Virus record (IMG/VR): IMGVR_UViG_3300042516_002090
Location: 2,578 to 66,577 of that record
Source of the DNA: a virus
DNA length: 64,000 nucleotides
Direction: 5' to 3' (one strand)
The notes beneath the pieces were generated by a model, which had not been told where the DNA came from, did no database searches, and saw only the letters and a list, made by a program, of their open reading frames with translations. Shown here piece by piece: positions 2,105-63,954 of the stretch. The position numbers were made by a program, and so were the translations under genes. Within the stretch, counting starts at the first letter, position 1. Each line of letters opens with the position of its first letter.

Positions 2105-2123
2105 CCCTTAAAACTAAAACGAA

Positions 2124-4722: not shown

Positions 4723-4920
4723 ATGACAAAGCTATTTAAAACTAAAGATGGGTATGAGGTTGTCAAACATTCGCGTGACGTTTATGCAATCGTAGGCAAG
4801 CGCGTGAAGTACATAGGCAAGGTCTCAGCCAACTACCAGTCAAGCGGACGACTGCTCAAGAGTATACCAAACGAAATCAAAACAATCTTTTTTAACATTC
4901 AACGAAATGAAGAGAACTAA
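4723..4920 (+). CDS. hypothetical basic protein
   Basis: 65-aa ORF after promoter. Confidence 0.7.
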   Translation: MTKLFKTKDGYEVVKHSRDVYAIVGKRVKYIGKVSANYQSSGRLLKSIPNEIKTIFFNIQRNEEN

Positions 4921-5212
4921 ATTTTCAATTGACGTAATCAGCGACGTTTACGATGGTTACACGAACGGACAACGGTGGAACGGATGGGAAATGCCATACC
5001 TGAGCAAGGCGGAGGTAATGCGCTTCCTTGCAACCGAGGCATTCGACGAGGACAGCGCGACCACATTCCGGTGGGAAGGTGAAACACTTATCGAAACCGA
5101 CCGAGACGAGCAATGTAGCGACGTCGTGCCGACAACCACCATCGACGGCCAAACCTACTACCGAATCGGAAACGGCTGGGTGTGGGAAGAAGTAAAAACA
5201 ACTTACAATTAA
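4907..5212 (+). CDS. hypothetical protein
   Basis: 101 aa, RWNGWxxP and IGNGWVW motifs. Confidence 0.75.
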   Translation: MKRTKFSIDVISDVYDGYTNGQRWNGWEMPYLSKAEVMRFLATEAFDEDSATTFRWEGETLIETDRDEQCSDVVPTTTIDGQTYYRIGNGWVWEEVKTTYN

Positions 5213-26300: not shown

Positions 26301-29300
26301 CACACTTGTCTTTAAAACGTATTCAGGATTTCCGTCATCGTCCTTGCCTTCTTTCTCTATAGTAACTTTTGTTTTATCGAAGTCGTTTGATTCGGTAAAC
26401 AAAACGTCACCGTTTTCATCTACAGTTTCATTACCCCACTCAACATCCTCTGATTTCTTAGGATCAACCTTAGATGGCATTTTGTAATTAGTAGCCTTCT
26501 GTTCTTGAACTTCAACACTTGTGCTAGGGGTTGACAATCCATTCTTAATACCTTCTTTTAATAACTTAATATTTCCATTTATATATTCAATTCTAAACTC
26601 TTGTGATCTGAATGCATCTTTGTTGCTTTTCTTAATTGATTTAAGTTTATCCTTAGCCTCGGCAAGAAGTTTTTCATTCAGCTTCAGCTCTTCTTCATAA
26701 TCAACAACAGGGTCTGAATTTTGAGCAATCGCCCACCATTCCTTATCTCTATCCTTTAATTTTTTTACATCTCCTCCATGATGATATTTATACAATGCAT
26801 CAGGATTGGTTGTAAGACCGAGTTCTTTTGCAATAGAATCGTTTCTTTTTCTCCATTCCTCTAAAACTGATGACCTCGGTACGTTAAATCCCCACTCTTG
26901 TGGATGTGACATTTGAATCAACAAATACAAATCCACAGCCGACGCCTCTCCAATGTTGAATTGATTGTATCTAAGAAGCTGAGGATACTCTTGGGTTAGA
27001 TCAGTTTCAGATTTGTAAAATTCTGGAGAAGACAATGTCCCCTTTACACCTGCGGGTATAAAGGTATTCCTATTAGATTTTTGAACAGTTTTAGGTGCTT
27101 GTTTTGACACCGGCTGTTTGCCTGTTTTCTTTTCAGCCTTTGTTTCAGGTTCTTTTTTGGTCTCCGTCTTTGTTTCTACTGGTTCTACTTTATCCTTAGA
27201 TTTTCTTTTCTTTTTGTATTTTCCAGCAACGAACAAATAGTTAGGTTCTTTTTCATTGGGAACCTTAACAATTTCACCTGTGTTGATATTTTGTATTTCA
27301 GATATTAATGTCGGAGTAACGCTTGTAGAATATGAACTTAATACCTCATACTCCTGACCGTCTTTTATTGATTTTATCAAGTTCCCACTTCCTAAGTCAC
27401 TTAAAGAAATAGGTGTTTCACTTGTGATCTCTCTTAATGTTGCACCAAAATCAAGAAATGTATGTGTGCTTTCTAGCTGTCCATTATCGTTTATAAAAAC
27501 ACGTATACCTCTCTGATCTTCACCAAACAAAAAATACGCTTCCGTTACATCTTCTCTGTCATTGTATCCAGGGTCATCACTAAGATCAAACGGTTCTCCT
27601 ACTCTTGCTATTTTCATAGGCCCAGACATATGAGTACCCATAATCACAGTAGCACCTACTATTTTTCCAATGTTTTCTTTTGTGAATTTAGCAGGGAATA
27701 CCTTTTTGCTGTTTATAGTTGGCTTTGTGGCTGGAGCCTCTGTTTCAGGTTCTTTTTTGGTCTTAGGCTCAGGCTTTGTTTCAGGAGCCTTTTTCCCCTC
27801 AGTAAGCTCGGTTCGGCGGAAATTCGCTTCTCCTGCATATGCGGGTTCTCCTTCTGGCTTTAAAATCACCAATGAGTTATTGCCCACGTAAGATTCTGGC
27901 CATTCTTCTGAGTCAATGTTTCCAGGGAGTCTTTCTATTACAATATTTTCAGTTTCATCCGGGCCAAGGACTACGCCTTCGATATAACTTACCCAACCCA
28001 TTCTTTCATCAATAGCACGAACCACTATGTCGCCAACTTTGAATTCAGAGAGCGGCTTTCCGTTTTTATTAACTTCTTCTATCCTATCACTTACAAATTT
28101 CTCGTTTTCTTCGGTTTCAAATAACCTAGACTCCCGTGGTTTGCGCTCCTCAGTCTTAGTTTCAACTGCCGCAGGCTCGGCCTCCTCCTCGCCCTCAAAT
28201 ATCTTGGCGATGCGCTTTTTACGAGTAGTCTTGGGTTCGGTTTTGACTTCAGGCTTTGTCTCTGGAGCTTTTTCTTTTTTAGCCGGAGCTGCTTCTTCTA
28301 CTTGAGGGGCGGCTTGTGTTTTGGAGGCTTCGAGGGCGGCTAGTTTTGCGTCGTATTCAGCATTGATTTTATCTTTAGATTTTTGAAAACCACTTCTACT
28401 TACAATTTCAAAAAACAAATTAGGAGATTCTTCTGTGTTGCTCCATAATCCATTACTTTCATCTAATACTTGAGGTCTTCCGGTATTTTCATTTACTCTA
28501 AAAATTCTATTATTTGGATCACCAATTATTTTAAACTCCCCGTCTTCAACTGTTGGTTTTCTATCATAAACTACTCTATTTTTTAACTCTTCTTGTCTTT
28601 CCTTTTCTACTTCTTCCCTTTGTGCTTGAAGTACTCCACCTGCTTCAGGCGTTTCTGCGCTTGGGACTTCGATAGGTTTGGCTGCGACAGGTTCTTGCCC
28701 GACTCCGACTTGACCTGATACCCTTGTTTCGTTTTCTTTATCATATTTTAGATTGTTAAGATTTTCAAGCAATAACTTGGAGTTGCCCTGCTGGCCCTCT
28801 CTTATCTGTAACGTCTTGCCGTCCTCGGTGGTGATGTTTACCGATACTATCTTCCCGTTCTTCTCAGCGTAATTATTAAGAGTCGCATTCTTCCCGGCGT
28901 AGTTAATCGTCGCACCCTTCTCAAGCGTTGGCGTAATGAGAGTGTTTTGATTCTCGATGTTCATTTCACCGACAACACCCTCGTCGGTCTCGATTCCCAT
29001 TTCGCGAATCTTATCGACTGCACCCTCTCCCTTCTCAACAATAACACTCTTACCGTTGTTGTATTCTATCTCGTAGTCACCATCCTCGTTAATAAAGAAG
29101 TTGGCGTACTGTCCACCAATCACAACACGCTGAGGTGTTGTTGACGTGCCTACTGACTTGGCGCTGATGCCGTTTTCCCCAAGCGACAAGATTTCTTGAC
29201 GCTCGTTTTTCAATCTTTCAATCTGAGCATTGATAATAGGGTCCTTCAGGTCTGTATCCTCAAGGGTTCGTATCTGCTGGGTAATGCCAAAAGCCCTGGC

Positions 29301-46869: not shown

Positions 46870-49266
46870 TTATACTCTTCCTGTTATTTCGTTTCCTAAC
46901 TCAGCCTCAAGGGTTGCCTCAAGCTGTATCTCTTCAAGGGCTTGCTTGCCCTTCAATAATTGTACTTGGTAGTTTGCGTCGGCCTTAATCTTAGCGAGCT
47001 GTTGCTCCTTCATAAGCTCCATGTTGGCCATCTCGCGCTGTTTCATGATTTCGATCTGAGCAAGCTGCATGGCTGTTTGGCGCTTAGCTTCTTCGGCCAT
47101 CATAGCAGACTGCTGTTGACCTTGAATTGTTTGCTGAAGCATCATTTGAGCATTCTTCTGCTCGCGTTCACGCGCTTCTGTTTCCTCGGTTGCCATGAAC
47201 CAAAGTGCTTCATCTACATCACCGTTCTTAAGAAGTTGAGCAACACGCTCTACACTTGACGGAGTAAGAAGAACTGAACCATCCTTGGTTGGGATTTGAG
47301 ACATCTGAATAGCTCTTTGAAGTATTGCGCTCTTTTCTTTTTCGTTCGGAATAGACTTAACGCTAATTGCAAGCTGGTCTAATGACAATCCTTCAATCTC
47401 ATCCAAGGAGTCAATCATGTTTTTGCCAATTACCGCCTCGTAAAACTCGCGAATCTTAGGGTCGTATTCTATGTCTATACGAGCCTGGTGAATCATGCGC
47501 TCTCCTACCTTGCGTTTAAAGTCACGCTCTGAATCGCGAAGAGTCCAGTTTGCGTGGTTGCCGGCTTGGTAATCCTGCTCCATAACACCAACAAGTCTTT
47601 CCGCGCTTTGGTCGGGGCTAGCCGCCATTGCATCCGGAATACCCATGGTATCCTTAATCATCATCTGCAAGTTGGCTATCTGCTGAATCCATTCAGTTCC
47701 CTGTGGGCCTAATCCGTTGTCCATCTCGGTCAATGGCTGGGACACATACTTTCCCGTTGCTGCGTTGAACTTAGTGGCAACAACCTGAATACCATTCTGA
47801 CGATGTACGTGTACAAGGTCAAACAAGTCGTATTCTACTCCGCCAATCTTGATGTTGGCGGCCTCACCTACGTCAATTCGATAACCCTTAGGAGCAGCAG
47901 CCCATACAGCGGCGCGAAGTTTAAGGATGGCGAACATTAAGTCGTCAAGCAATCCTCTTACGCTACGTGTGGGGGACTGTCCTGGAATACGGTCGATAAC
48001 GTAAGAACTCATCGGTGTGAGTCCCTTCTGCATCTGGTTAGGCTTCTTCTTCCATTCGTAGATTCGGTCAAGACCGGTTCCCGAGATGATGTATGAACCT
48101 TCGTACCAATAGTTGCAGGCAACCTCTTCGTATGTGTCGTTAGGATTCTTTTTCTTTTCCTCTACAGGCTTGTTGTTTCGAAGGAATGAGGCATAACCCT
48201 GCTTGTTCTTTCTCTCAACATATTGCTTGTAGTCAGTGGAAAGGTATTCAAACTTTAGGACGTAAACCTTGAAGTCCATCCAAACCCATCGGTTTGATGT
48301 CTCGTCCTTTCTCTCAAAAGCCCACACGGGAATCATGGAGGCATTCGTCTGATAAGGAACGTAAGACTTAGCCATTGACTGAATCTGCTTCTCGTCAAAT
48401 CCTGCCTCAACTAGCTTAGGGAATATCGACTGAATGGTCTCAATCTCAATGTGGCCAATAGCTACAGGCTCGTCTTCATTGTCTTCGTTCCAAAGCATGA
48501 TAAGACGAGCGGGGTCTATATATTGAACCTTTACTTGTCCTGTGATTGGGTCGTTGTAAATCTTAGCAGACCGGAAGTGGTAATCAATAGCGTCGCGATT
48601 TATATCAGTACGCATTGAACCCCAATTAGATGAACGAAAGCCTGACTCAGCAAGTTTCTCCAAGGCAACCTCATATTTAGTCTTGAAAAAACCAAGGCGA
48701 TCCGCCATGTCGAGCATGGTCTCGTCCTTTGGCACAAACGGAAGTTTAAACTCCGGAAGGCCAAGCTCACGCATTAACGGATTTGTAAAATTCGCTTTAG
48801 CGTAAATATCATTTTTTTCGCGCTTCTTTTTATTGATGATATTTTTATCAAGAGAAATACAATCAAGTTTGTAATCGTTATCAGAAAGAATTGATAAAAG
48901 AACATTGGTCAGTTTTTTCATTGGAGAGAAAATGTCGTAGCTTATGTTAGCCATCGCCTTTCTCTGTGCCGTGTTCATGCCCTTTGTTGACTGAGAGGTC
49001 TCGTTGTTTGACCTTGTCTTAGTTCCAATAGGGGATCCGTTAGTAAACCAGTTCTTATATTTCTCCACCGATTGAATTCCAGAGCCGTAGTTTCGGGTCT
49101 CTTGCATCTCAGGGAGCTGCGTGTATGAAAAGTACGTACCCCCTGTGCAAAAACGAGAATACAATGCTCTTCCGCATCGTAAGCCAAATTCGGGCTTTAG
49201 TTTTTCTATCTCTGGCACGTTATCGCTTGGAAACAAATAGTTTCCAGCCATTTGAGGTAGTATCAT
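46870..49266 (-). CDS. portal protein
   Basis: 798 aa after TerL; Q/M/A-rich C-terminal barrel typical of podoviral portals. Confidence 0.85.
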   Translation of the reverse strand: MILPQMAGNYLFPSDNVPEIEKLKPEFGLRCGRALYSRFCTGGTYFSYTQLPEMQETRNYGSGIQSVEKYKNWFTNGSPIGTKTRSNNETSQSTKGMNTAQRKAMANISYDIFSPMKKLTNVLLSILSDNDYKLDCISLDKNIINKKKREKNDIYAKANFTNPLMRELGLPEFKLPFVPKDETMLDMADRLGFFKTKYEVALEKLAESGFRSSNWGSMRTDINRDAIDYHFRSAKIYNDPITGQVKVQYIDPARLIMLWNEDNEDEPVAIGHIEIETIQSIFPKLVEAGFDEKQIQSMAKSYVPYQTNASMIPVWAFERKDETSNRWVWMDFKVYVLKFEYLSTDYKQYVERKNKQGYASFLRNNKPVEEKKKNPNDTYEEVACNYWYEGSYIISGTGLDRIYEWKKKPNQMQKGLTPMSSYVIDRIPGQSPTRSVRGLLDDLMFAILKLRAAVWAAAPKGYRIDVGEAANIKIGGVEYDLFDLVHVHRQNGIQVVATKFNAATGKYVSQPLTEMDNGLGPQGTEWIQQIANLQMMIKDTMGIPDAMAASPDQSAERLVGVMEQDYQAGNHANWTLRDSERDFKRKVGERMIHQARIDIEYDPKIREFYEAVIGKNMIDSLDEIEGLSLDQLAISVKSIPNEKEKSAILQRAIQMSQIPTKDGSVLLTPSSVERVAQLLKNGDVDEALWFMATEETEAREREQKNAQMMLQQTIQGQQQSAMMAEEAKRQTAMQLAQIEIMKQREMANMELMKEQQLAKIKADANYQVQLLKGKQALEEIQLEATLEAELGNEITGRV

Positions 49267-49330: not shown

Positions 49331-51793
49331 TCAATCTATTTCGAAAAACGAAAATCCTCCCTGTACCTCTATCGGTTGGTAAGCCTCCTTGTAAAGATCT
49401 GGCATCCGGCTCTTTATGGCTCTCATACACCACCCCGTTGCGGCACACAAGTCATGGTTTGTCAAGTCATCAATGCCCCTCATCTGACTCCATTCCTCGA
49501 CTATCTCCCACATTTTCACGTACTTAACATTGTTGTTAAAGAAGGTCATGATGTCTCCGGCCATCTCGTTTTTTTCGGCTTCCCCCGCCCAAACACCTGG
49601 TCTTGAGTCCTGCTTGCCGTCTGATCCCAAGTCCTTCAGAAGGTATCCGTCAAATCCGTTATCTCTAAAGTATTCGACAAGGGCCTCTCCATCGGGCCAT
49701 TCTGGGTAAACGTATGCCCCAAGGAATACAGCCGCCTTTAACCACTCTTCGTGATACTCAGCCTTGTCTTCGGTCTGTCTGTTGTAAATCAGAATCCAGT
49801 CGTTACTTACCCACTCGCTTCTAGGCTTGGTGTCGGGGTCCGCCTGACTATCTCTTTTGTAAAACACAGCGGCAGCAGCGTTTGACTTCTTTTTACCTAC
49901 AGTGTTTCGCTTGTGGAACTTTACAGGGTCACAGCAAAGGAAGAATCTATTCATTACCGATGGATCGGGAGCGTAAATAGGTCCCCTATTCTTTGGTTGA
50001 ATGTAGCCCTCTTCTGCTGTAACAACGGTCTTCCTATTACGCATCTCATTTGGAGGAAGGTAACTCATGGTCCAACTTCCCTTGGGGTCGTTTTCTACAT
50101 AAACATCCCCACCAAACTTGTCACCCATCCACTTGAAGTTGATTTTTGTTGTAATAGGTGTACGAGAAAACTTGAGTTCCGATATACGGTCGCGCATCTT
50201 CTCGATAGGCATACCCATGTCCTTAGGGATTACCGCGAACGCCTGCTTCCAACTCATCGGGAAGTTCTGCTGTAACTTAATCAGCTTTTGCCACTCCCTC
50301 TTGCGCTCGAAGTAGTCTGCCTGGTTCAAAAGATACGACTTAGCTCCCTTGGTAATCCACTTGCCCTCGTTAGACATCACAGGTTCCTTAGGGTCGTCGA
50401 TAATGCTTGCCCCATACTCGTCGATGTATCCCTCTACCGCGTAGTAACCCGGCAAGAAGAAGTTGATGAGTCCCGATGGTGTAGTTCCATTCTCATTACG
50501 ATCAGAGAAGTGCGAGTCGTTGGCAATGTCAAAGAACTGCGCTCCACCCCCTGTGTCCATGTCACCTACTGTAGATGGCATGATGCAGAACCCACGAATG
50601 TTTTCCCCTCGTTCGATAGCGGGTTTCATCGTGTTGTACCACCACGTCGGGATGTTTTGGTCCGCCGCCTTCGCATCCGTTTTCTTCGCTGGCTCGTCAC
50701 GGTAGACAAAAGCGATTTCCGCTTCACCATCCGCCGCTTTCTCCGTCGAAGGGAGCGGCGTGATAAAGCACTCCATTTGTTCTGGGATGATTCCTGCCCT
50801 TGCTGCTGATGCGATTGCTCCTTCATACTGGAAACGCAAGCCCTCCTTTGCCTCTATTCGTCCGCGATAGTATGGGCGAAAGAAGAAAGGAAGCTTGCTT
50901 ACAGGTGTTTGAATTTGTTTTATGAATATCTTGTTTACCGCCTGGTCCTCATTCATCGCCTGGATGATAAAGGTTTGGTCGGGCATATTGAGCGTTCCCC
51001 ACGTGCAGAAGCAACAAGCAATAGCTGTCTTAGCAATACGTCGCCCGGATACGAAGTTTATCCCATGCACAGTGCGCTTTCCTTTCTTGACCGTGATGTT
51101 TACGTTTGGTTCAACGAAGTACTCCACACCCATTTCGTTCATTTCGTCAACCACGTTCTTCACGTCTTGGTTTGAGTACTTTGTTTTTACTACCGCGTCT
51201 TCCCTGTAGATAATCTTGTGCTTATAGAACGCATCCTCTGTAGTGTAGGCATACATGAACAGGTGGAACATTTTCCTTTGGTAGTCCCTGTAGTCAGGTC
51301 TGTTGTTATTCTTACCAAAGTTCTTTACCGTCCAAAAGTTCAAGAAGAAATAGTTCGCCCCGTTTATGTAGGTTGGTTTCCCTTTAATGAAACACCAATA
51401 GCCAACGTATCTACGCTTTATCTGGAGCTTGATCCACTCAATCTCCATAGCGTAATACTTCTGATTCGATTCTATCTCCTCGTAAATATCTTCTAACCTT
51501 ACGTCACCGACCTCTTTGTACTTGGACTTGTTGGTTGCGTGTTTCTTATTAAAAACGACCTCGTAAATAAGTCTTATCTTTTCAGGAGTTTCCTGATAAG
51601 TGAACTTTTGGTCTTTTGGATTCATTCCATACCCATCGACGTAAGTAAGCGCTTCTTCCCTAGTGACCTCTCTTTTTAGGTGGTGTGAATACCACTCCTC
51701 AAGGCGCGGAAGCGGAATGCGGATTGTATCCAACTCGTCGTCATCCTCGTGGAATGAAACATACTTATCCTCCTCATCGTATTCGTACTTCAT
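49331..51793 (-). CDS. terL: terminase large subunit
   Basis: GRRIAKT Walker A, FVYRDE Walker B, PST, FLCCDP and HDLCAA nuclease motifs; ATGA-coupled start. Confidence 0.9.
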   Translation of the reverse strand: MKYEYDEEDKYVSFHEDDDELDTIRIPLPRLEEWYSHHLKREVTREEALTYVDGYGMNPKDQKFTYQETPEKIRLIYEVVFNKKHATNKSKYKEVGDVRLEDIYEEIESNQKYYAMEIEWIKLQIKRRYVGYWCFIKGKPTYINGANYFFLNFWTVKNFGKNNNRPDYRDYQRKMFHLFMYAYTTEDAFYKHKIIYREDAVVKTKYSNQDVKNVVDEMNEMGVEYFVEPNVNITVKKGKRTVHGINFVSGRRIAKTAIACCFCTWGTLNMPDQTFIIQAMNEDQAVNKIFIKQIQTPVSKLPFFFRPYYRGRIEAKEGLRFQYEGAIASAARAGIIPEQMECFITPLPSTEKAADGEAEIAFVYRDEPAKKTDAKAADQNIPTWWYNTMKPAIERGENIRGFCIMPSTVGDMDTGGGAQFFDIANDSHFSDRNENGTTPSGLINFFLPGYYAVEGYIDEYGASIIDDPKEPVMSNEGKWITKGAKSYLLNQADYFERKREWQKLIKLQQNFPMSWKQAFAVIPKDMGMPIEKMRDRISELKFSRTPITTKINFKWMGDKFGGDVYVENDPKGSWTMSYLPPNEMRNRKTVVTAEEGYIQPKNRGPIYAPDPSVMNRFFLCCDPVKFHKRNTVGKKKSNAAAAVFYKRDSQADPDTKPRSEWVSNDWILIYNRQTEDKAEYHEEWLKAAVFLGAYVYPEWPDGEALVEYFRDNGFDGYLLKDLGSDGKQDSRPGVWAGEAEKNEMAGDIMTFFNNNVKYVKMWEIVEEWSQMRGIDDLTNHDLCAATGWCMRAIKSRMPDLYKEAYQPIEVQGGFSFFEID

Positions 51794-54052: not shown

Positions 54053-54244
54053 ATGTTTATCCTCTCAATTGTCTTAACTGTTGTATCTATCTATCTGATG
54101 ATCAAGAACTCCATATATGGCTGTGGCAAAAGATGTTACAAGACCCGAAAGGAGGCTCAGGATCATTGTGATCAGGACCAACAAGTGTTCATGTGTTGGG
54201 ACTGCGAAAAGTGGCACATAAAAAATAATGAAGAAAATACTTGA
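54053..54244 (+). CDS. small membrane-anchored Zn-finger protein
   Basis: N-terminal TM; CGKRCY and CWDCEKWH. Confidence 0.7.
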   Translation: MFILSIVLTVVSIYLMIKNSIYGCGKRCYKTRKEAQDHCDQDQQVFMCWDCEKWHIKNNEENT

Positions 54245-54276
54245 CAGCCACGCGTGTTTGTTTTATGTTTGTCAAA

Positions 54277-54386
54277 ATATTTCACCCCTCGTTTGCTACG
54301 AACCACAGTAAACTAGGGTTGGAAGCTAAGTAAAAACTTACTTATCAACCTAAAAGCTCGCAAAGTGGTTCTTGCGAGCTTTTTTT
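54277..54386 (+). ncRNA. kissing-loop leader RNA B of replication operon
   Basis: TTG-N20-TATGTTTG promoter; hairpin loop ACGAACCAC; UAAGUAA/UUACUUA hairpin; terminator loop AGUGGUUC and U7. Confidence 0.8.
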
Positions 54387-54391
54387 ATCTT

Positions 54392-55114
54392 ATGCACAAT
54401 CAATATTCAATCATCCCTGCAAGTGTGCTGCTTAGTAAGGAATTGTCATCTACTGAGAAATTGCTCATAGGTGTCATATCAAATCTATCAAACATCAAAG
54501 GTTATTGTTTCGCTTCAAACCATTACCTGGGTGAGTGCCTTGGTATATCCAAGCATAGTGTTCGTCGGGTTATTTCCGATCTAGAACAGAAGGGTGTTCT
54601 AGGGAGAATAGTTAAACTCAACAGTCGAAATGAAGTTGAGGTAAGGTGTTTAACAATAAATCCAGACGCTGATATTTTGAGTAGAACGGTCACCCCTGAA
54701 ATACCAATATCTGAAAATGAGGAAGATGAATTTTTTGATCATACCCCTGCTCAAAAACCTGCATACCCCCTGCTCAAAAATGAGCATACCCCTGCTCAGG
54801 AATGCTCACATAATAAAAAGAATAAAGTAAAAGAAGAAAGTAAGTATTCTTTCGAGCAGTTTTGGTTGATGTATGACAAGAAGGTGGATAAGAAACAAAC
54901 CCTTGCTGTTTGGAATAAACTATCTGCTGAGGACCGAACCCTAGCAGTTGAAGGCATGGGAAACCATAAAAGTGGGCGCGAGCGCAAATACTGGAAGGAC
55001 CCGATACGATATCTTCGCGACAGAAGGTGGGAAGACGAAACAACGAATACGAATACAAATACAAAACAAACTAACTACAATTATGACCCAAATGACCCAA
55101 GGAATAAATGGTAA
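54392..55114 (+). CDS. replication initiator (HTH, lambda O-like)
   Basis: LSSTEKLL...GYCFASNHYLGE HTH; FEQFWLMYDKK...P.RYL...RWEDE C-domain. Confidence 0.85.
   Translation: MHNQYSIIPASVLLSKELSSTEKLLIGVISNLSNIKGYCFASNHYLGECLGISKHSVRRVISDLEQKGVLGRIVKLNSRNEVEVRCLTINPDADILSRTVTPEIPISENEEDEFFDHTPAQKPAYPLLKNEHTPAQECSHNKKNKVKEESKYSFEQFWLMYDKKVDKKQTLAVWNKLSAEDRTLAVEGMGNHKSGRERKYWKDPIRYLRDRRWEDETTNTNTNTKQTNYNYDPNDPRNKW
54740..54808 (+). repeat. iterons (putative replication origin)
   Basis: CATACCCC(C)TGCTCA at 54740, 54762, 54785, followed by A-rich tract. Confidence 0.8.
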
Positions 55115-57029
55115 GGTATCCATCTACAAAGACTTCAATGACCTGCAAGGACACACGATTAGTGTACTGGGCGCACTTGAACGAATTAGGACTGGAAAAT
55201 CAAAGGCACTTGTTGAGAAGGCGAGGGAAGCCAAGACCAAGAAAGAGGCGGACGAATTAAAAAAGAAACTCCCCGCAGTTTGTTTCAGTGGAACTTTTTC
55301 CAAAAGGAAAGACTCTGAGCTGCTCGAACACTCCGGATACATCGTGTTGGACTTCGATAACGTGTCAGATATGGCCCAAAAACGAAGCGAATTGTGTTCG
55401 ATGAGGTATATTACCGCTGTTTGGGAATCACCCTCAGGAAAAGGCTTAAAAGCGCTCGTCCAAATAGAGTGGAAAACCAAGCATAAGGAACACTTTGACG
55501 CTTTGATGGAAGAAATGCCCGACATTGACAAGACCGGTCGCAATGTTTCTCGCCTGTGCTTTGAGTCGTATGATACCAATCTTTGGTACAACGAGAACGC
55601 TGAAGTGTACACAAAGCTTCCTGTAAAAAAGGAAGATAGGAGGTTGCCCCAACAGACAACTACCGAGACTATTAACGACGACGACAAGATATTTCAAAAT
55701 CTTCTTGCGTGGATGACATCTAAGGGTGATGCGTTCCGTGAAGGCGAAAGGAACCACTTTGTATTCAAGTTAGCTGCGAGTTGCTGCCGCTTTGGGATGA
55801 TGGAGGAAACTTGCTACAGCTTAATGATGATGCACGTTACTCCAAACTCTAGCTTCAGTCAAAAGGAATGCAGGCAAGCCATCCGTAGTGCTTACCGGGC
55901 CAACATGAATCAGTGGAATACTGCTGAGTTCACTAAAGACCAACTGGTTACAAAGAGTAACCACAAGGAGGTAGAGATCGTAATCACCGCAGAAGATGCG
56001 GAGAATATCGCCGCAGAAGATGTCATTTATGCTGAAGAAGTGTTTGAGCAGGCATCTGAGATTTACCACAAGGGCTATCAGGCAGCAATGCCGCTTGGCG
56101 TTCCGCTCCTAGACAAACACTTCAAAAGAGTTAAAGGCGAATTAACAATTGTTTCCGGAATCGGAAACTATGGTAAGTCTTCGTTTATGAAGTGGGAGAT
56201 GATATTCCGCATGGTCAAGTTTGGGGAGAAGGTTGCCATATTTACTCCCGAGGAATTGCCCGCTGAGCAGTTCTATCATGACCTAGTCGAGATTTACTTT
56301 GGAAAGGACTGCACACCCAACAATTACCACAGACCGAGTTACGAGTCTTACAAGAAGGTGTATGATATGATTGGACAACACATCTTCATGGTGTATCCAA
56401 AGAACGTAAGCCCGACTCCTGACTATGTCAAGGAAGTCTTCCTAAGCATGATCATCAAGCATGGAGTAGACCGAGTAGTAATCGACCCGTTCAACCAAAT
56501 GGCAAACGACTACAGCAAGGGCGGTGGTCGCAGCGACAAGTACCTTGAGACATTTCTATCCGACTGCACAAGGTTTGCAAGAAAAAACAACGTGTACTTC
56601 GATATTGTGGTCCACCCGCACAAGATGAGAAAAGGAGACGACGGCAACTACCCATGCCCGGAGGTGTTTGACCTTGCCGATGGGGCGATGTGGAACAACA
56701 AGGCTGACAACATCATCATTTACCATCGTCCTGTCGCTCAGACAGCCCCCGAAAGTCCACTGTGTGAGTTTCACTCCAAGAAGATCCGTAGACAGAAGAT
56801 AGTGGGGATAAAGGGCTTCTTTGACTTTGAACTCGTAAGGTCTACTCGCAGGTTCACGTTCGAGGGCGTCGATTACCTTCAACAGGCGATCGAGGGTAAG
56901 TATGTGCAAGCTGAAATTAAACAGCCAGCCGCGATAAAGCCGAACAAGAGTTGGACTGATTCGAAAGAGGCAAAGGAATGGAACGAGGAGCCAGGACACC
57001 CGAACGGGTATAAAGAGGCTTGGGAGTAA
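55083..57029 (+). CDS. primase-helicase (BT4734/VirE-N + PriCT + SF4 helicase)
   Basis: KKKLPAVCFSG, IVLDFD, SPSGKGLK, EGERN, SGIGNYGKS, VVIDPFN, VVHPHK. Confidence 0.9.
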   Translation: MTQMTQGINGKVSIYKDFNDLQGHTISVLGALERIRTGKSKALVEKAREAKTKKEADELKKKLPAVCFSGTFSKRKDSELLEHSGYIVLDFDNVSDMAQKRSELCSMRYITAVWESPSGKGLKALVQIEWKTKHKEHFDALMEEMPDIDKTGRNVSRLCFESYDTNLWYNENAEVYTKLPVKKEDRRLPQQTTTETINDDDKIFQNLLAWMTSKGDAFREGERNHFVFKLAASCCRFGMMEETCYSLMMMHVTPNSSFSQKECRQAIRSAYRANMNQWNTAEFTKDQLVTKSNHKEVEIVITAEDAENIAAEDVIYAEEVFEQASEIYHKGYQAAMPLGVPLLDKHFKRVKGELTIVSGIGNYGKSSFMKWEMIFRMVKFGEKVAIFTPEELPAEQFYHDLVEIYFGKDCTPNNYHRPSYESYKKVYDMIGQHIFMVYPKNVSPTPDYVKEVFLSMIIKHGVDRVVIDPFNQMANDYSKGGGRSDKYLETFLSDCTRFARKNNVYFDIVVHPHKMRKGDDGNYPCPEVFDLADGAMWNNKADNIIIYHRPVAQTAPESPLCEFHSKKIRRQKIVGIKGFFDFELVRSTRRFTFEGVDYLQQAIEGKYVQAEIKQPAAIKPNKSWTDSKEAKEWNEEPGHPNGYKEAWE

Positions 57030-57070
57030 TGAAAAAAACCATATCGGGTATAAATTTAACAGTTTTTTTC

Positions 57071-57101
57071 TTGCACAAAAGAAACATATATGCTAGATTT
57101 G
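57071..57101 (+). promoter_or_regulatory. Bacteroidota-type promoter for SSB
   Basis: TTG-N20-TAGATTTG. Confidence 0.7.
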
Positions 57102-57134
57102 CGAAACATAACCAATTAATTAATCATAAAAATT

Positions 57135-57767
57135 ATGGGATTAAATCAAGGTGGTTCATCAAACCGTACTTACCTCAGCATATCTGGCGGTAAGATTGCC
57201 AAGCGAGTTCCTGAAGGAACGGCTGGCTCAATTAAGTGTAACAGCAAGGACGGCACTAAGGTGTGGTACGAGCAGAGATTTTCTTCTCTGTCTGGCTACA
57301 TAGTAGACGTGTTCAAGCGCGTATCCGAACAGGGATATGGAGACCAACTCTGCGTGGTTCTTAGAGATGGAAGCGAGGAGTATCAGATCCAGATGCCGTG
57401 GTCTTCACGCTACTCGTCAGGATTCTTCTTATCAATGCCGAACATCGACGCCGGCAAAGAAATTACTCTAACTCCGTGGTCTAAAGAGATTGACGGAAAG
57501 ACTCGCACGATGCTTTACCTCCGTCATGGTCAAGAGGATATCAAGTGGGGGTGGACCAAGGACAATCCTGGAAATATGCCTGAGATGAAACAAATTAAGG
57601 TGAAGGGACAAATCGTGTGGGACGACTCAGAACGTCAAGAATTTTTTGAGAAGCACCTCAACGACATCTTCATGCCACAAGTAAAGGCTGTGAGTTCTGT
57701 AAAGAAATTAGATTCATACGCCGCTATAGCTCCTTCTGAGGACCCTGGAGACGACCTGCCATTCTAA
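57135..57767 (+). CDS. putative single-stranded DNA-binding protein
   Basis: C-terminal DDLPF tail, position after helicase. Confidence 0.75.
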   Translation: MGLNQGGSSNRTYLSISGGKIAKRVPEGTAGSIKCNSKDGTKVWYEQRFSSLSGYIVDVFKRVSEQGYGDQLCVVLRDGSEEYQIQMPWSSRYSSGFFLSMPNIDAGKEITLTPWSKEIDGKTRTMLYLRHGQEDIKWGWTKDNPGNMPEMKQIKVKGQIVWDDSERQEFFEKHLNDIFMPQVKAVSSVKKLDSYAAIAPSEDPGDDLPF

Positions 57768-57776
57768 CTTTAACCA

Positions 57777-57821
57777 AGGGCCGTGGCGGGGGATAAACAG
57801 GGGCGAACCTGCCGCGGCCTT
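57777..57821 (+). other. GC-rich intergenic hairpin
   Basis: 14-bp stem, 17-nt purine-rich loop, no U tract. Confidence 0.55.
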
Positions 57822-57834
57822 AATCCAAACGAAC

Positions 57835-58320
57835 ATGAGATATACATTCAAAGACCTAGTGGAGCTTGTCCACGTAAACAAACGAAACGAGTTTACAAAA
57901 ATTTACGAGTACTTACATAAGATAGACAACCCTCAGGAAAACGAAATCCTTGAGAAGGTAGGAAAACACTTCGAGGTAACTCCAAAAGAAATCAAGGGAA
58001 GGAACAGATACGCTGACGTTGTACTAGCGAGACACATGTTTATGGCGACAATCAAGGTATGCTCTACAAAAACACTTGCCGAGGTTGCAAGACTGGTAGA
58101 GAGAGACCACGCCACTGTTTGCCACGCCATGAAGACTATCCGCATGGACTACGACTACAACCCGGCTAGAAGGAACAAGATAAGACACTTCATCGCCGAC
58201 CTAGACCCAACAAGACAAGAACTTTTATTAGACTTTTTAAATGAACGGAACCCCGATATACTTGCCGCCTACGCCGTCGACACTGACCGAGTTACAGCAC
58301 CTTCGGAATTTAAGGCATAA
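57835..58320 (+). CDS. DnaA C-terminal HTH domain protein
   Basis: R...VVLARH...TLAEVARLVERDHATVCHA matches DnaA domain IV signature. Confidence 0.85.
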   Translation: MRYTFKDLVELVHVNKRNEFTKIYEYLHKIDNPQENEILEKVGKHFEVTPKEIKGRNRYADVVLARHMFMATIKVCSTKTLAEVARLVERDHATVCHAMKTIRMDYDYNPARRNKIRHFIADLDPTRQELLLDFLNERNPDILAAYAVDTDRVTAPSEFKA

Positions 58321-58507
58321 GCTACTCATTCAGGACATGGAATACCCAAAGCTGGGTATACACAAGCCAAAGATAAAATATGATCGTGACAAGTCTCTAA
58401 TGCGTTTGATTAACGTAAGGTTGTACGAACTCACTGGTAATGATATGTATCTTTGGATCAGCGGACATTTTAATGAACTTAAAAAAATAGAAGATGGGCA
58501 GAATTGA
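58241..58507 (+). CDS. hypothetical protein
   Basis: 88-aa ORF overlapping neighbours. Confidence 0.6.
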   Translation: MNGTPIYLPPTPSTLTELQHLRNLRHKLLIQDMEYPKLGIHKPKIKYDRDKSLMRLINVRLYELTGNDMYLWISGHFNELKKIEDGQN

Positions 58508-58772
58508 AATAAAAGACGCAAAGCGCACAGTAGACGGACAGAAGGTAAACGCGTACCGGGTCCGTACTATTGGGGATAACAACGAGATACTTCAGACCTC
58601 TGAGGTGTTGAACACGATTGACAGCGTGAAAAAGCACATCAGAGCGATGGCTCTTGCTTGGAATAGTGAAGGTTATGCCGAGGTGATAGACTGCACGTAT
58701 CGCGGAAAGTTTGATGGTAAAATCATCGATCTTGAAGAGTACGACAAGCTAAAAATTGAAACAATTTCCTAA
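58494..58772 (+). CDS. hypothetical protein (YegP-like pattern)
   Basis: YRVRTIGDNNEILQTSE motif. Confidence 0.65.
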   Translation: MGRIEIKDAKRTVDGQKVNAYRVRTIGDNNEILQTSEVLNTIDSVKKHIRAMALAWNSEGYAEVIDCTYRGKFDGKIIDLEEYDKLKIETIS

Positions 58773-58918
58773 TGGACACCATTGAGTCTATCATGTACGT
58801 GCCATACAGTGTGTGTGAGGGCGGCGAAGAGAAAATAATGTATATTTGCGTACCTACTACATTGGTAATCATGAAGAGTCAACAAGTCGAAAAATCACAA
58901 TTTATATTTTGGAACTAA
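58772..58918 (+). CDS. small hypothetical protein (48 aa, not in track)
   Basis: TAATG-coupled, MDTIESIMYVPY...FIFWN*. Confidence 0.5.
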   Translation: MDTIESIMYVPYSVCEGGEEKIMYICVPTTLVIMKSQQVEKSQFIFWN

Positions 58919-58938
58919 AAAAGTCATTCCCAGCCTAC

Positions 58939-59157
58939 ATGTTGGAGTTACCCAACATCACCCTTACAGCATTCCTGTTTGCGTTTGTTATTGCCTTTGT
59001 GTTTTCACTTTTGGAGAAAAACTACGCAACCGCGATTGCTTCGTTTTTGATCGTGGCATCCATCCTTCCAATTAAGTACTATATGTGGAAGAAGATAAAG
59101 GTGCAAAACGATGACAACGAAAAAAAGCATAAAGTCATCGTAATCAAAAGAAAGTGA
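58939..59157 (+). CDS. small two-TM membrane protein
   Basis: Two hydrophobic helices and basic tail. Confidence 0.6.
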   Translation: MLELPNITLTAFLFAFVIAFVFSLLEKNYATAIASFLIVASILPIKYYMWKKIKVQNDDNEKKHKVIVIKRK

Positions 59158-59189
59158 GCAAACTAAATTGTTTGTTGATACATTTGCTG

Positions 59190-59269
59190 AGTTGTGCTTT
59201 TATAGCGCAAGTTCAGTTTGTTTTATTCATTTCGTTTGTGAAAACCGTCTCCTAAGCGAGGCGGTTTTT
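59190..59269 (+). ncRNA. small RNA E, antisense to start-codon regions
   Basis: TACATTTG box, 5' hairpin, unpaired UUUGUUUUAUUCAUUUCGUUUGUG, terminator AAAACCGUCUC/GAGGCGGUUUUU. Confidence 0.7.
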
Positions 59270-59312
59270 GCTTTCTAGGTGATACTCATTATATTTGCAA
59301 ATATCTACCTTA

Positions 59313-60332
59313 ATGAAAAACAACGTACAGAACTATCGCAACATCTTAAACGACACGCGAGACCTTAGTCAAAACAAAAAGATTGAATTAGAGTATGATA
59401 ACGTAACGTCCGGGATCACACTTGAGTCTTTTAAACGACAGTTTCTCTCCTGGAAGAAGAACAACAAAGTAGAACCGGCAAAGAAGGCGCGGATAACTCC
59501 AAAAGCCATCGCAAACGCATTCGAGGATATCATTAATGAGCTGATTCCCGACAGCAATCCACTAGGGTTGCCTGACTCAAAGGAAAAAAGTTACAGCCCA
59601 TATAAATTCCCAGTTAACCACAATGATATCCTATTTCTCACCGACATTCACGTACCATATCACAACATCCCTGCCCTCACAGCAGCGCTCAAGTACGGAC
59701 TTGAAAACGATGTCAACACAATCTACATCAACGGGGACCTCATCGACTTCTATGCGATCAGCCGGTTCCAAAAAGACCCGCGCAAGAGAGACCTCGCTTC
59801 TGAAATCTATATGGCAAGGGACTTCCTCTACACGCTGCGGAAGCTGTTCCCTACTCAAGCAATATACTTCAAGGCAGGAAACCACGACATCCGTTGGGAC
59901 CACTACCTGATCAACAACGCATCAGATTTAGTTGGGATTGAAGAGTTCTCCTTGGAATCCATCTTGCATCTTAAGCAGCTCAACATCACATTTATCCCAG
60001 ACAAGCAGCTTGTAAGAATGGGCAAGCTAATAGCACTGCACGGCCACGAGTTTGGGTCAAGTATGTTCAGCCCGGTAAACATCGCCCGTGGTTTATACCT
60101 TAGGGCCAAGGACAACGCAATCTGCGGACACCACCACCAGACGTCGGAGCATACCGAGCCAAATATCAACGGGAAGGTGACAACCTGCTGGTCGGTAGCC
60201 TGCCTGTGCGAGCTTCACCCTGACTATATGCCGATTAACAAGTTCACTCACGGTTTCGCGCACGTGAAAGTGTTTGATAATGAGGAGTTTGAGGTTACAA
60301 ACTACCGAATCGTAAACGGCAGGATCAAGTAA
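59313..60332 (+). CDS. calcineurin-like metallophosphoesterase
   Basis: DIHVP, NGDLID, GNHD, HGHE, GHHH motifs; own TTTG-N19-TATATTTG promoter. Confidence 0.9.
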   Translation: MKNNVQNYRNILNDTRDLSQNKKIELEYDNVTSGITLESFKRQFLSWKKNNKVEPAKKARITPKAIANAFEDIINELIPDSNPLGLPDSKEKSYSPYKFPVNHNDILFLTDIHVPYHNIPALTAALKYGLENDVNTIYINGDLIDFYAISRFQKDPRKRDLASEIYMARDFLYTLRKLFPTQAIYFKAGNHDIRWDHYLINNASDLVGIEEFSLESILHLKQLNITFIPDKQLVRMGKLIALHGHEFGSSMFSPVNIARGLYLRAKDNAICGHHHQTSEHTEPNINGKVTTCWSVACLCELHPDYMPINKFTHGFAHVKVFDNEEFEVTNYRIVNGRIK

Positions 60333-60349
60333 ACCTCGTAACATTTTTA

Positions 60350-60384
60350 TGCACGTTTTTGTTACAGAACGTGTGCGTTTTTTT
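60350..60384 (+). terminator. intrinsic terminator
   Basis: GCACGTTT/GAACGTGT stem then T7. Confidence 0.55.
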
Positions 60385-60410
60385 CTGTATTTTGCATAAC
60401 AGGATGTGCA

Positions 60411-60653
60411 ATGGAGAACCCAAGGATCAGATACAGGAAGTTAGGCAGGGAAAAGGCGCGTGGCCTTTACCATGAGGACGGTCTTATCGAGATCGATCCA
60501 AGACTCCCTGCAAAGGAACACCTTGAGGTAATTATCCACGAATATCTTCACCACGAGTTCAAGCATTGGGAGGAGGGGCATGTTGAAGAGTATGGAATAA
60601 AAATATCCGAGTTCCTGTGGGCATTAGGTTACAGACGCGTAAATTTGGAATGA
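60411..60653 (+). CDS. small zincin-like protein
   Basis: IEIDPRL...IIHEYLH (HExxH) plus downstream Glu. Confidence 0.75.
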   Translation: MENPRIRYRKLGREKARGLYHEDGLIEIDPRLPAKEHLEVIIHEYLHHEFKHWEEGHVEEYGIKISEFLWALGYRRVNLE

Positions 60654-60654
60654 C

Positions 60655-60906
60655 ATGAGAATTATGCTCCCGATAGTCATAGACAACGACGAGAAAAGGG
60701 TCGCCGACCTGGTTGGTTCTACGCCGGAGAAGTTCGAATGCGAGCCGGCTATTTTTTACTCCATAGATAACATTCGTCCATACCTCAATTACAAGAATCT
60801 CTGCATGATAAGCTCTGGGGGAGACGACTTTATCGTCGGACTTTCCATGGAAGAGGTGGACGACATCATCATGAGCGACATAAGCCACATGTTTAGCGCA
60901 AATTAA
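60655..60906 (+). CDS. hypothetical protein
   Basis: 83-aa ORF. Confidence 0.7.
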   Translation: MRIMLPIVIDNDEKRVADLVGSTPEKFECEPAIFYSIDNIRPYLNYKNLCMISSGGDDFIVGLSMEEVDDIIMSDISHMFSAN

Positions 60907-60964
60907 TGTTAAAATTGTTGCATGTTGCCACGCGTGTATTATATTTGCCATATAAATAAACGAA

Positions 60965-61423
60965 ATGAACGATTTAGAAAGAAAAAAACGACTGATTGTG
61001 ACCGCTTTGGGCGCACAACAAATCTACGCACAGTGTCACGACGAGTGTGTGGACATGAAGTTCTTCAAGCACGATATGAAGATGCACTCCAAAAACCTTA
61101 TTGCCAAGCTAGAGCGTGAGCTTATGCCCATTTTCGGGGTGCTTGGTAACGTGGACGGAGGAGACGCATATCTAAACGCCGTTGGTATGATGGAAAACAC
61201 CTTGCAGAACCTTGCAACGCTCCCTGTCGAATACTGGGCGGTAATCAACATTGCGATTAACGACATAAAAAAGCGAATCGATGAAAAGAACCAAGAAGGG
61301 GATAACGGAGTACCTGACGGAGAAGCTCATGGAGTGGAATCCGACGGTGGACAGCCAAGCGATAGCGTGGACGCTGAGCCGGAACATACCGCAGCTGAAG
61401 AGCATGAAGCAAGCGGACATTGA
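60965..61423 (+). CDS. hypothetical protein
   Basis: 152 aa; TTG-N19-TATATTTG promoter at 60918-60947. Confidence 0.75.
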   Translation: MNDLERKKRLIVTALGAQQIYAQCHDECVDMKFFKHDMKMHSKNLIAKLERELMPIFGVLGNVDGGDAYLNAVGMMENTLQNLATLPVEYWAVINIAINDIKKRIDEKNQEGDNGVPDGEAHGVESDGGQPSDSVDAEPEHTAAEEHEASGH

Positions 61424-61638
61424 CACAGTACTCCAAGCCTGCAAAGATGATCTTTCCCAATGGTCCTATACCGGTCACGACTCCCCTTGGAGACGGATAC
61501 ATCCTCTACATAACACCGAACGGTTTTCTGGAGAATGACGAGATAACGGTCGTGCTGTCAAACGGCGGCGAAATAAGGCACTTCTCTAGCGATCAGGTGC
61601 GTGTGTGGAAAAACTCAACCTACGGGATACATGAATAA
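61420..61638 (+). CDS. hypothetical protein
   Basis: IPVTTPLGDG motif; ATGA coupling. Confidence 0.7.
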   Translation: MTQYSKPAKMIFPNGPIPVTTPLGDGYILYITPNGFLENDEITVVLSNGGEIRHFSSDQVRVWKNSTYGIHE

Positions 61639-61819
61639 CTACGTGATAACGATATGGGACGGCGAGAAGATCGTCCACAACGCAAGGGCCAAGGCCAAGA
61701 GTCCTGAGTCTGCCAAGACAAAGGCTTTAAGCGACTGCTTGAAGATGGATAAACTAATGGGAAAAGAAAACAACTGGTTAAGCTACCGATGGGACATACA
61801 AGCGACAATAAGCCGATAA
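61631..61819 (+). CDS. hypothetical protein
   Basis: ATG 61631 in frame with track ORF. Confidence 0.65.
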   Translation: MNNYVITIWDGEKIVHNARAKAKSPESAKTKALSDCLKMDKLMGKENNWLSYRWDIQATISR

Positions 61820-62001
61820 AATATGTGTCAGAACTGCTCAACGAGGTAATCGTTGACATGATTATGCGTGAAAAGAAGGGTTTTTCTCAGTATAATCACA
61901 CAATGGACCGCACGGACCTGACCAAGGAGGAGTGGATTCAACACGCATACGAGGAGGCGCTTGATCTTGCGCTGTACCTCAAGAAGATTATGAAGTCATA
62001 A
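61789..62001 (+). CDS. small phage protein (all-alpha NTP-PPase-like pattern)
   Basis: R...G..QY..TMDRTDL...WIQHAYEEALDLALYL. Confidence 0.65.
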   Translation: MGHTSDNKPIKYVSELLNEVIVDMIMREKKGFSQYNHTMDRTDLTKEEWIQHAYEEALDLALYLKKIMKS

Positions 62002-62010
62002 ACAAACGAA

Positions 62011-62292
62011 ATGAAAAAGAAGACACAGTACACAATCTTTGCCTACGAGCCAGGCACTGAGGTTTATGCCATCTCCATGTGGCATGATAACGGAAAGCCA
62101 ACTGATCATCTAGCAATCTACAAGGCCAAGGTGGCGTCGTGGAGCTATGACGCGGAGGAGAAAGATGTTCTTTACTACCTTGAAAACCTCAGCGGAGAGT
62201 GGTGGGGAGACAGCATCAAGGGGGAGTATGTGTCGGAGTCGTTTGACGAACTTATGAACTACGCCAAAGAACTCTGGAGAAATGCGAAATAA
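62011..62292 (+). CDS. hypothetical protein
   Basis: 93-aa ORF. Confidence 0.75.
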   Translation: MKKKTQYTIFAYEPGTEVYAISMWHDNGKPTDHLAIYKAKVASWSYDAEEKDVLYYLENLSGEWWGDSIKGEYVSESFDELMNYAKELWRNAK

Positions 62293-63778: not shown

Positions 63779-63846
63779 AGCCTTTTTTTTACAAATATAT
63801 GCAATGTCGTCATCTATACAAGGTTTGGCGAACTTATCTTTTTTCC

Positions 63847-63954
63847 GTAAACTCATAATGGTTGGCATTTCGTAAACCAACTATGGTTGGGGTACACAAT
63901 CTGTAAACTTATAATGGTTGGGGTGAATAATTCATAAACTCATATTGGTTGGGG
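63847..63954. repeat. four degenerate ~21-bp direct repeats
   Basis: RTAAAC-N6-TGGTTGG(GG) at 63847, 63872, 63903, 63934. Confidence 0.8.

Follow-up and report, generated by a model that had tools for sequence, protein, structure and literature searches.

To our knowledge, nearly all known cases of phage-encoded base-pairing small RNAs come from Proteobacteria and the prophages they carry. Here, we analyse a predicted small RNA gene in a virus, IMG/VR record IMGVR_UViG_3300042516_002090, within a stretch of 64,000 nt hereafter called the window (bases 2578-66577 of the 66,577-base record, which is rated 100% complete). The predicted RNA of about 80 nt carries an unpaired segment complementary to start codons of the same phage. 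It is very likely that the locus is a real small RNA gene of some function. Judging from the sequence, there is about an even chance that its product is a phage-encoded, trans-acting RNA that blocks the translation starts of a 152-aa gene, a 93-aa gene and perhaps a gene coding for a protein with a DnaA-type helix–turn–helix (HTH) domain.

The c4 antisense RNA of phages P1 and P7 is a phage RNA of similar size, whose short complementary stretches act elsewhere on its own mRNA and hide a ribosome-binding site. A single transcript carries both c4 and its targets; the RNA is cut out of it and functions in the immunity of a temperate phage. The RNA described here resembles c4 in being aimed, as predicted, at the phage's own messages, but it has its own promoter box, and its putative targets lie 1.4-2.8 kb away in apparently separate transcription units. 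In phage T4, the protein RegA represses the translation of a set of early mRNAs, which it recognises at their start regions. The likeness is that one phage product would shut off a set of early mRNAs, and the difference is that the recogniser here would be an RNA acting by base pairing.

Other relevant RNAs are described in the literature. Small RNAs of lytic or induced phages act on host genes in Proteobacteria, including the host replication machinery, according to a preprint (bioRxiv 10.1101/2024.10.31.621285). They share with the present case a phage base-pairing RNA and a lytic cycle, but the putative targets here are phage genes and the host belongs to another phylum. The c4 RNA is mentioned in a 2025 review of phage-derived small RNAs, the text of which contains neither 'Bacteroid' nor 'Flavobacter' (PMC12197685), and we found no small RNA of a Bacteroidota phage in the literature searched (supplements outside its scope). 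In Bacteroides thetaiotaomicron, the conserved unpaired seed of the small RNA GibS pairs across the start codons of two mRNAs and represses both; the complementarity is extended, and binding in vitro is of high affinity without a chaperone protein (PMC7366714). Our element shares with GibS a Bacteroidota setting without Shine-Dalgarno sequences and an unpaired, conserved seed, which is predicted to pair across more than one start codon. In contrast, GibS as described there is chromosomal, regulates host metabolic genes and carries its seed in the 5' part, whereas the seed of the phage RNA lies between two hairpins.

No sequence or family relation between GibS and the phage RNA was found, and no Rfam 15 family matched the region 57000-62000 on either strand at E values up to 1. 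The small RNA thus appears to belong to no described RNA family while probably working like a classical trans-encoded small RNA that occludes start sites: it has a host-type promoter box, a terminator, an accessible and conserved seed, and conserved complementarity elsewhere in the genome. Bacteroidota initiate translation without Shine-Dalgarno pairing, and RNA-based control is little known there.

The predicted small RNA locus and its conservation

The unit sits in a 155-base gap between an open reading frame (ORF) of 72 aa and a metallophosphoesterase gene. Its parts are the following.

59179-59186 (+): promoter -7 box TACATTTG, a motif match to the Bacteroidota consensus TAnnTTTG
59190-59269 (+): predicted small RNA of ~80 nt, with a likely 5' end at 59190-59192 and a 3' end in the U run at 59265-59269
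59192-59198/59204-59210 (+): 5' hairpin with a 7-bp stem and a 5-nt loop, in the RNA fold of 59190-59269
59211-59239 (+): unpaired U/G-rich stretch of 29 nt, single-stranded in the minimum-energy fold
59226-59239 (+): core seed UUCAUUUCGUUUGU (14-mer TTCATTTCGTTTGT; core UCAUUUCG), with the anti-start CAU at 59228-59230
59240-59269 (+): intrinsic terminator with a G+C-rich stem, a 6-nt loop and a U run

The transcription start was placed 4-6 nt past the box because other boxes of this phage stand at a similar distance from start codons: in many of its genes, 4-8 nt separate a TAnnTTTG box from the ATG. A sequence-only reading of the window had described 59226-59239 as unpaired between two hairpins and complementary to a list of gene starts, and both the fold and the sequence matches bear this out. 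The region 59158-59285 folds at -45.1 kcal/mol (z = -6.1), and none of 200 shuffles did as well. RNAalifold also proposed an outer stem, CTGAG/GTTCAG, which we rejected because one-sided, uncompensated changes break its pairing; this segment probably lies upstream of the transcription start.

Gene starts were taken from heuristic ORF calling (85 ORFs, covering 94% of the genome). The regions upstream of the called genes are A/C-rich, and a Shine-Dalgarno motif is almost never present. In Bacteroidota, whose mRNAs lack Shine-Dalgarno sequences, the primary sigma factor has TAnnTTTG as its -7 consensus (PMC7366714). The large terminase has 87 relatives among 50,697 phage records, at only ~24% identity, and 86 of them belong to phages of Flavobacterium, Cellulophaga, Tenacibaculum or Maribacter. 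Based on these upstream regions, promoter boxes and terminase relatives among phages of Flavobacteriia, in silico evidence supports a host of the Bacteroidota type, without Shine-Dalgarno sequences. The shared AACGAA-AUG leader in such a host, as proposed by the sequence-only reading, was recovered, with a seed that mirrors ..AAACGAA-AUG... A megablast search of 57000-62000 and a blastn search of the element against the phage records both returned zero matches, and the 50,697 records hold no close relative.

Several boxes stand very close to the ATG, e.g. at 53976 (-), 54053 (+), 4723 (+) and 18642 (-), which implies leaderless or near-leaderless mRNAs. Leaders of less than 10 nt are reported to be rare in Bacteroides thetaiotaomicron (~3.7%; PMC7366714).

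Neither a tyrosine integrase (PF00589) nor a resolvase (PF00239), the two lysogeny genes searched for, was found in the complete genome, so the phage is probably virulent. An immunity RNA of the c4 type is not supported, given the lack of these two genes in the complete genome and of any Rfam match.

We recovered 66 loci in viral contigs through the neighbouring metallophosphoesterase. The element stands at the same place in 36 of them, in 28 distinct 110-nt forms with the window counted in, and the metallophosphoesterases of these 36 loci are at 80-98% identity. Of 60 stretches picked out of viral contigs by a pattern scan, 38 carry the element and 22 are chance matches within genes. Among the metagenome stretches, 38 of 41 carry it, and the lone stretch from a genome collection was discarded as a chance match without promoter, hairpin or seed. 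A covariance model gave a single strong match per source (29 at E<=2e-18 in 45 sources). The unit is present once per genome in ~40 related uncultured phage contigs, and the model may be used to annotate the family in viromes.

Mean pairwise identities were taken from a 23-sequence alignment of distinct variants across the neighbourhood. The promoter box has an identity of 1.0 and is also unchanged in a set of 24 sequences; in two metagenome loci it reads TAttTTTG, with the changes confined to the two free positions of the consensus. The unpaired stretch (0.96-0.97 over 59208-59237) and the 3' arm of the terminator (0.96) are nearly as constant, and UCAUUUCGUU is invariant in all variants of the main clade. 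The 5' arm and loop of the first hairpin (0.60-0.67), the terminator loop (0.55) and the spacer between the terminator and a second promoter box downstream (0.42) vary, and the flanking coding sequence is mostly at 0.5-0.8. Judged by these identities, the unpaired stretch is more strongly constrained than the surrounding proteins.

For RNA structure, we used a model-guided alignment of the 28 distinct sequences. This alignment is fitted to the structure and so favours pairing, but the same changes are visible in a plain alignment. Standard pairs make up 97.3% of the 476 stem cells; shifting the partners by 1-3 columns lowers this share to at most 56.1%. Alternative Watson-Crick types are seen at three pairs (UG/UA/CG, UA/GC/UG and CG/UA/UG). 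Two of them are inner pairs of the 5' hairpin, which switch UA/GC/UG and UG/UA/CG while the loop sequence is free. In the terminator, all cells pair in the 28 sequences, with one pair as CG/UA/UG and three as CG/UG. G.U pairs fill 60 of the 476 stem cells and would be A.C mismatches in a transcript of the - strand, which argues for an RNA of the + strand. Since one-nucleotide insertions and deletions occur in the loop and in the unpaired stretch, neither strand can hold a conserved reading frame. In silico evidence thus supports a discrete, conserved small transcription unit on the + strand.

These data bear on the view that the complementarity is a functionless chance match or a decaying gene start of the - strand. 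That strand does read as a typical gene start followed by a 5-codon frame (MNKTN*), and inverted exact 14-mers are unremarkable in this genome, with 68 positions in 66.6 kb vs 10-45 in 10 block shuffles. Nevertheless, the mini-frame is lost among the relatives, which have MK* in three loci with a 1-nt insertion and MIKTN* in others, whereas the stretch itself is conserved above the flanking genes. The G.U pairs of both stems work only on the + strand, and no - strand promoter box was seen on reading 59270-59312. The escape that the relatives are too recent to have diverged is contradicted by the variable loops and spacer. We consider this explanation very improbable and strongly disfavoured; its second form, the decayed gene start, had been named by the sequence-only reading as one that would overturn its proposal.

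The neighbours of the unit raise the question of whether it is instead part of one of them.

58939-59157 (+): 72-aa ORF, the upstream neighbour, hydrophobic by inspection and considered a membrane ORF
59290-59297 (+): second promoter box TATATTTG, 16 nt before the metallophosphoesterase ATG, with a pairwise identity of 0.96
59313-60332 (+): metallophosphoesterase gene, the downstream neighbour (phrog_221, E 1.6e-38)

A cis element would be the 3' end or terminator of the 72-aa gene, a transcribed region serving as an origin or primer, or a leader or attenuator upstream of the metallophosphoesterase gene. The unit indeed lies directly past a same-strand gene and among replication genes, namely those of a primase/helicase (55083-57029), the DnaA-HTH protein and the metallophosphoesterase. 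Moreover, the bare promoter 8-mer is common by chance, being no more frequent in the window than expected (58 vs 50.6 +/- 6.8), so the promoter call, which this result weakens, relies on conservation and position and not on the motif match. A scan for sigma-70 promoters and terminators was uninformative for this host type, and the main terminator is absent from its list. The last 30 bases of the 72-aa ORF (59128-59157, +), 22-51 nt upstream of the small RNA promoter box, might also belong to a larger element: their identity is 0.90-0.98 vs 0.13-0.75 in the rest of the ORF, and they occur as a single copy in the window. On sequence grounds, this block may be an upstream promoter element or regulatory site.

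Several features argue against a role in cis. The box is invariant at its six fixed positions while the two free ones vary in one lineage. The downstream gene has its own conserved box TATATTTG 16 nt before its ATG and is therefore independent of the small RNA's promoter. A plain terminator needs no invariant unpaired stretch of 29 nt that mirrors two distant start codons, and a small RNA derived from a 3' end would act in trans anyway, in which case this explanation partly merges with that of a trans-acting RNA. We regard a purely cis-acting element as unlikely.

Directly 3' of the metallophosphoesterase gene, a 10-bp hairpin followed by a U run (60350-60385, +) is probably its terminator. 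The 80-aa ORF downstream of this hairpin has a weak IrrE/M78-like match (E 0.0064, below the curated cut-off).

Complementarity to gene starts

In the window, 59226-59239 is the exact reverse complement (14/14) of 62002-62015 (+). Relative to 60956-60969 (+) there is one mismatch, which is a G.U pair in RNA, leaving 12 contiguous Watson-Crick pairs plus the G.U. Shorter matches run for 11 nt at 4901-4911, for 10 nt at 2117-2126 and, with a bulged C before the ATG at 57835, for 8 nt at 57826-57838. All five lie on the ATG of ORFs of 93-161 aa in the heuristic list. We co-folded the 80-nt RNA with positions -30 to +30 of each of the 85 starts (mean gain -8.6, sd 4.0 kcal/mol). Contiguous Watson-Crick matches and co-fold gains were preferred as measures because the U/G-rich seed yields long, G.U-rich RNAduplex duplexes everywhere (16 loci). 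The candidate targets are as follows.

60956-60969 (+): predicted target 1, leader and start codon of the 152-aa gene 60965-61423; gain -18.9 kcal/mol, rank 2 of 85
60940-60947 (+): own promoter box of the 152-aa gene
62002-62015 (+): predicted target 2, 9-nt gap and start codon of the 93-aa gene 62011-62292; gain -20.4 kcal/mol, rank 1 of 85
57826-57838 (+): predicted, weaker target 3, leader of the 161-aa gene 57835-58320 coding for a DnaA C-terminal HTH protein (Pfam PF08299, E 9.7e-17); outside the 12 best co-folds
4901-4911 (+): doubtful target, start of the 101-aa gene 4907-5212; gain only -13.8 kcal/mol, rank 9
2117-2126 (+): doubtful target, start of the 112-aa gene 2124-2462; outside the 12 best co-fold gains

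The third-best gain is -15.3 kcal/mol, and only the starts at 62011 and 60965 stand out by energy. Thus, of the five targets proposed by the sequence-only reading, all five matches do fall on ATGs, but only these two are distinguished by co-folding; the gene at 57835 is intermediate, with support from its orthologues (below), and those at 4907 and 2124 are weak.

The motif AACGAAATG occurs six times on the two strands of the genome: at four gene starts, once as the antisense of the small RNA and once elsewhere. This is the count of starts against other positions that had been suggested as a check, and it favours gene starts. When gene starts with a match of at least 10 nt to the antisense of the unpaired stretch were counted, there were five, vs a mean of 0.42 in shuffles, none of 300 of which reached five. 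It is therefore the placement of the matches at gene starts, and not their existence, that exceeds chance.

To compare relatives, we took 11 gene families near the element and matched each start with the RNA of its own genome (8-26 distinct combinations per family). The mean contiguous match is 11.2 nt (range 8-14) for the 152-aa family, 11.4 nt (8-14) for the 93-aa family, in which all 17 distinct combinations keep 8-14 nt, and 8.6 nt (6-12) over 24 distinct combinations for the DnaA-HTH family, vs 4.3-6.7 nt for the other eight neighbouring families. The leader of the 152-aa gene (-8 to -1) is 0.95 identical over 35 loci, the highest value among the 11 families (others 0.47-0.92), despite an identity between the encoded proteins that goes down to 60%. 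At this gene start, AACGAAATG is found in 33 of 36 related loci. Five complete relatives hold 27 occurrences of AACGAAATG vs three of a reversed control; these comprise five RNA antisense copies and five starts of a 152-160-aa gene, one each per genome, and 11 of the remaining 17 copies precede at least 40 open codons and are candidate starts.

In six relatives, the start of the 93-aa orthologue is preceded by a tandem double motif. In another group it reads ..CAAATGAAT-ATG.., by which, on inspection, two central pairs are lost and pairing to UAUUCAU of the RNA is gained.

A type I toxin-antitoxin arrangement with the adjacent 72-aa ORF was rejected: the RNA matches the start region of this ORF, the part compared, by only 4.6 nt on average, and this pair is outside the 12 best co-folds.

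The 152-aa and 93-aa proteins match no PHROGs or Pfam family, and the ESM Atlas gave no usable match. The AlphaFold2 model of the 152-aa protein, built on a 14-row alignment, is poor (mean pLDDT 50, pTM 0.26). In this protein, a QQ.YAQCHDE block is invariant (AQQIYAQCHDE in the window); four helices are predicted, and the tail is acidic and variable.

A number of results weigh against regulation of these starts by the RNA. The starts themselves come from a heuristic and not from a gene finder. When the reverse complement of an ordinary gene start is used as the probe, it does almost as well as the unpaired stretch (mean 0.75, with 2 of 85 reaching five matched starts), so this stretch is best described as the mirror image of one gene-start family, and the complementarity could be what remains of a gene start duplicated in inverted orientation. 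Nor do energies discriminate by themselves, as 200 random in-gene windows average -6.3 kcal/mol with a first percentile of -19.7. Two loci (L122 and L128) carry ACAAACGAT-ATG, with a central mismatch in the main target. Furthermore, a seed variant, AAUCAU, present in 7 of the first 36 loci, is not matched by changes in the targets.

Covariation between seed and targets, another check proposed at the outset, yielded one positive event and nothing within the main clade, where the RNAs match the targets of their own genome (11.09 nt) no better than in cross pairs (10.94 nt); this test is uninformative there because seed and targets are both nearly invariant. The positive event concerns a distant locus (L127; 152-aa orthologue 47% identical) in which the UAUUCAUUUC core seed is missing from the homologous RNA (E 8e-7) and the motif is missing from the orthologous 152-aa gene start, a co-loss predicted by the pairing model. 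It is, however, a single event and the only seed/target co-change, and the remaining unpaired stretch of this RNA matches the starts within 12 kb over 7 nt at most. In a more distant group represented by L042, whose neighbouring protein is 59% identical, the unit is built alike, its first hairpin being unrelated and its U/G-rich stretch related, but the RNA has no anti-AUG; 13 of 16 positions match the orthologous start by eye, the longest contiguous match being 7 nt. As the units of L127 and L042 keep the build without the core, the architecture predates the present seed. Either the seed changes over time, as it does in other small RNAs, or the conserved function is a different one.

The latter alternative is that of a real phage small RNA with other partners, such as host mRNAs with A/C-rich starts, an RNA-binding protein of the host or the phage with affinity for the U/G-rich stretch, or another RNA. 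The matches to the phage's own gene starts would then be a by-product of a shared leader style or of the origin of the seed as an inverted gene start. The evidence for an RNA gene, i.e. conservation and stem pairing, applies equally to this alternative, and the absence of covariation speaks for it, as do L127 and the L042 group, which keep the architecture and GUUUG-type stretches and not the anti-AUG core, in keeping with a AAACGAAAUG-independent function. Most phage small RNAs in the 2025 review are said to act on host genes (PMC12197685). Nevertheless, the two best pairings among the 85 starts span 12-14 nt and are centred on the AUG, complementarity is kept for the same three families and not for the eight neighbours, and the leader of the main target is unusually constrained exactly where the pairing falls. 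We thus consider other partners possible but rather doubtful. For the trans-acting RNA directed at phage starts, the comparative support is unusually clean, and the predicted target list is short and directly testable.

Proposed mechanism and a second candidate unit

If the RNA does act on phage starts, the host RNA polymerase would transcribe it from the TAnnTTTG promoter and stop at the intrinsic terminator. The 5' hairpin and the terminator hairpin would frame the nearly invariant unpaired stretch, whose core UUCAUUUCGUUUGU would pair in trans with the leader and start codon (..ACAAACGAA-AUG-A..) of a few early phage mRNAs. The main targets would be those starting at 60965 and 62011, the DnaA-HTH gene at 57835 being a less certain third. 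The mRNA of the 60965 gene probably begins a few bases past its box (60940-60947), which would give a leader of ~11-14 nt; the start at 62011 lies 9 nt past the stop of the preceding ORF. Because the leaders are very short and free of Shine-Dalgarno sequences, pairing from about -9 to +5 would leave almost none of the ribosome landing site accessible and so prevent initiation, in the manner of GibS. Promoters of one type seem to serve both the RNA and its targets, so the likeliest outcome is that the hairpin-protected RNA would accumulate and cause a dose limitation or a delayed shut-off of the target proteins, a timing that we purely infer. If this is true, the 80-nt RNA and a 14-nt leader would form a defined pair for start-site occlusion on near-leaderless mRNAs, and a portable repressor module for Bacteroidota genetics.

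The sequence-only reading suggested the silencing of a regulon and a possible temporal switch; we consider a wider regulon with such a switch unlikely. In a bolder version that we find similarly improbable, the phage clade would run part of its early programme by RNA, with a master anti-leader RNA, the RNA equivalent of RegA in T4, that reads ACAAACGAA-AUG and turns off a small regulon including the DnaA-like protein. Pairing to the bare leader and start codon would be the only handle in that scheme, because the host mRNAs have no Shine-Dalgarno sequence. The unit at 54264-54386 described below would be a further member of this RNA layer, and the tandem leader motif would tune sensitivity.

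An apparent second conserved small transcription unit in the first early operon occupies 54245-54392 (+), past the 63-aa ORF 54053-54244, the first of the early ORFs. Its parts are a box TATGTTTG (54264-54271), a structured stretch and, at 54353-54386, a strong terminator, and its fold z is -3.2. The box is kept in all five complete relatives, and compensated changes were seen in the terminator stem and an inner stem on reading the alignment. An 11-mer from the unpaired stretch of the small RNA recurs exactly in the window only once, at 54256-54266, and 54256-54272 is 88% complementary to the primase/helicase leader (55055-55071). This unit could be a second small RNA or a 3' untranslated region.

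Other features of the genome

Among the recognisable late genes are those of the terminase (49331-51793) and the portal (46870-49266). Two very large ORFs in the late block, 23346-31826 (-) with 2826 aa and 18664-22848 (-) with 1394 aa, match no PHROG at E<=1e-5.

Two repeat arrays were observed. Within the 240-aa ORF 54392-55114, a 23-nt unit is present in three tandem copies (54744-54804). The other array (63844-63952) occupies an intergenic gap at the record's end and consists of four ~22-nt direct repeats spaced by 25-31 nt. They look like iterons or operators, and one of them overlaps a - strand ACGAAATG start.

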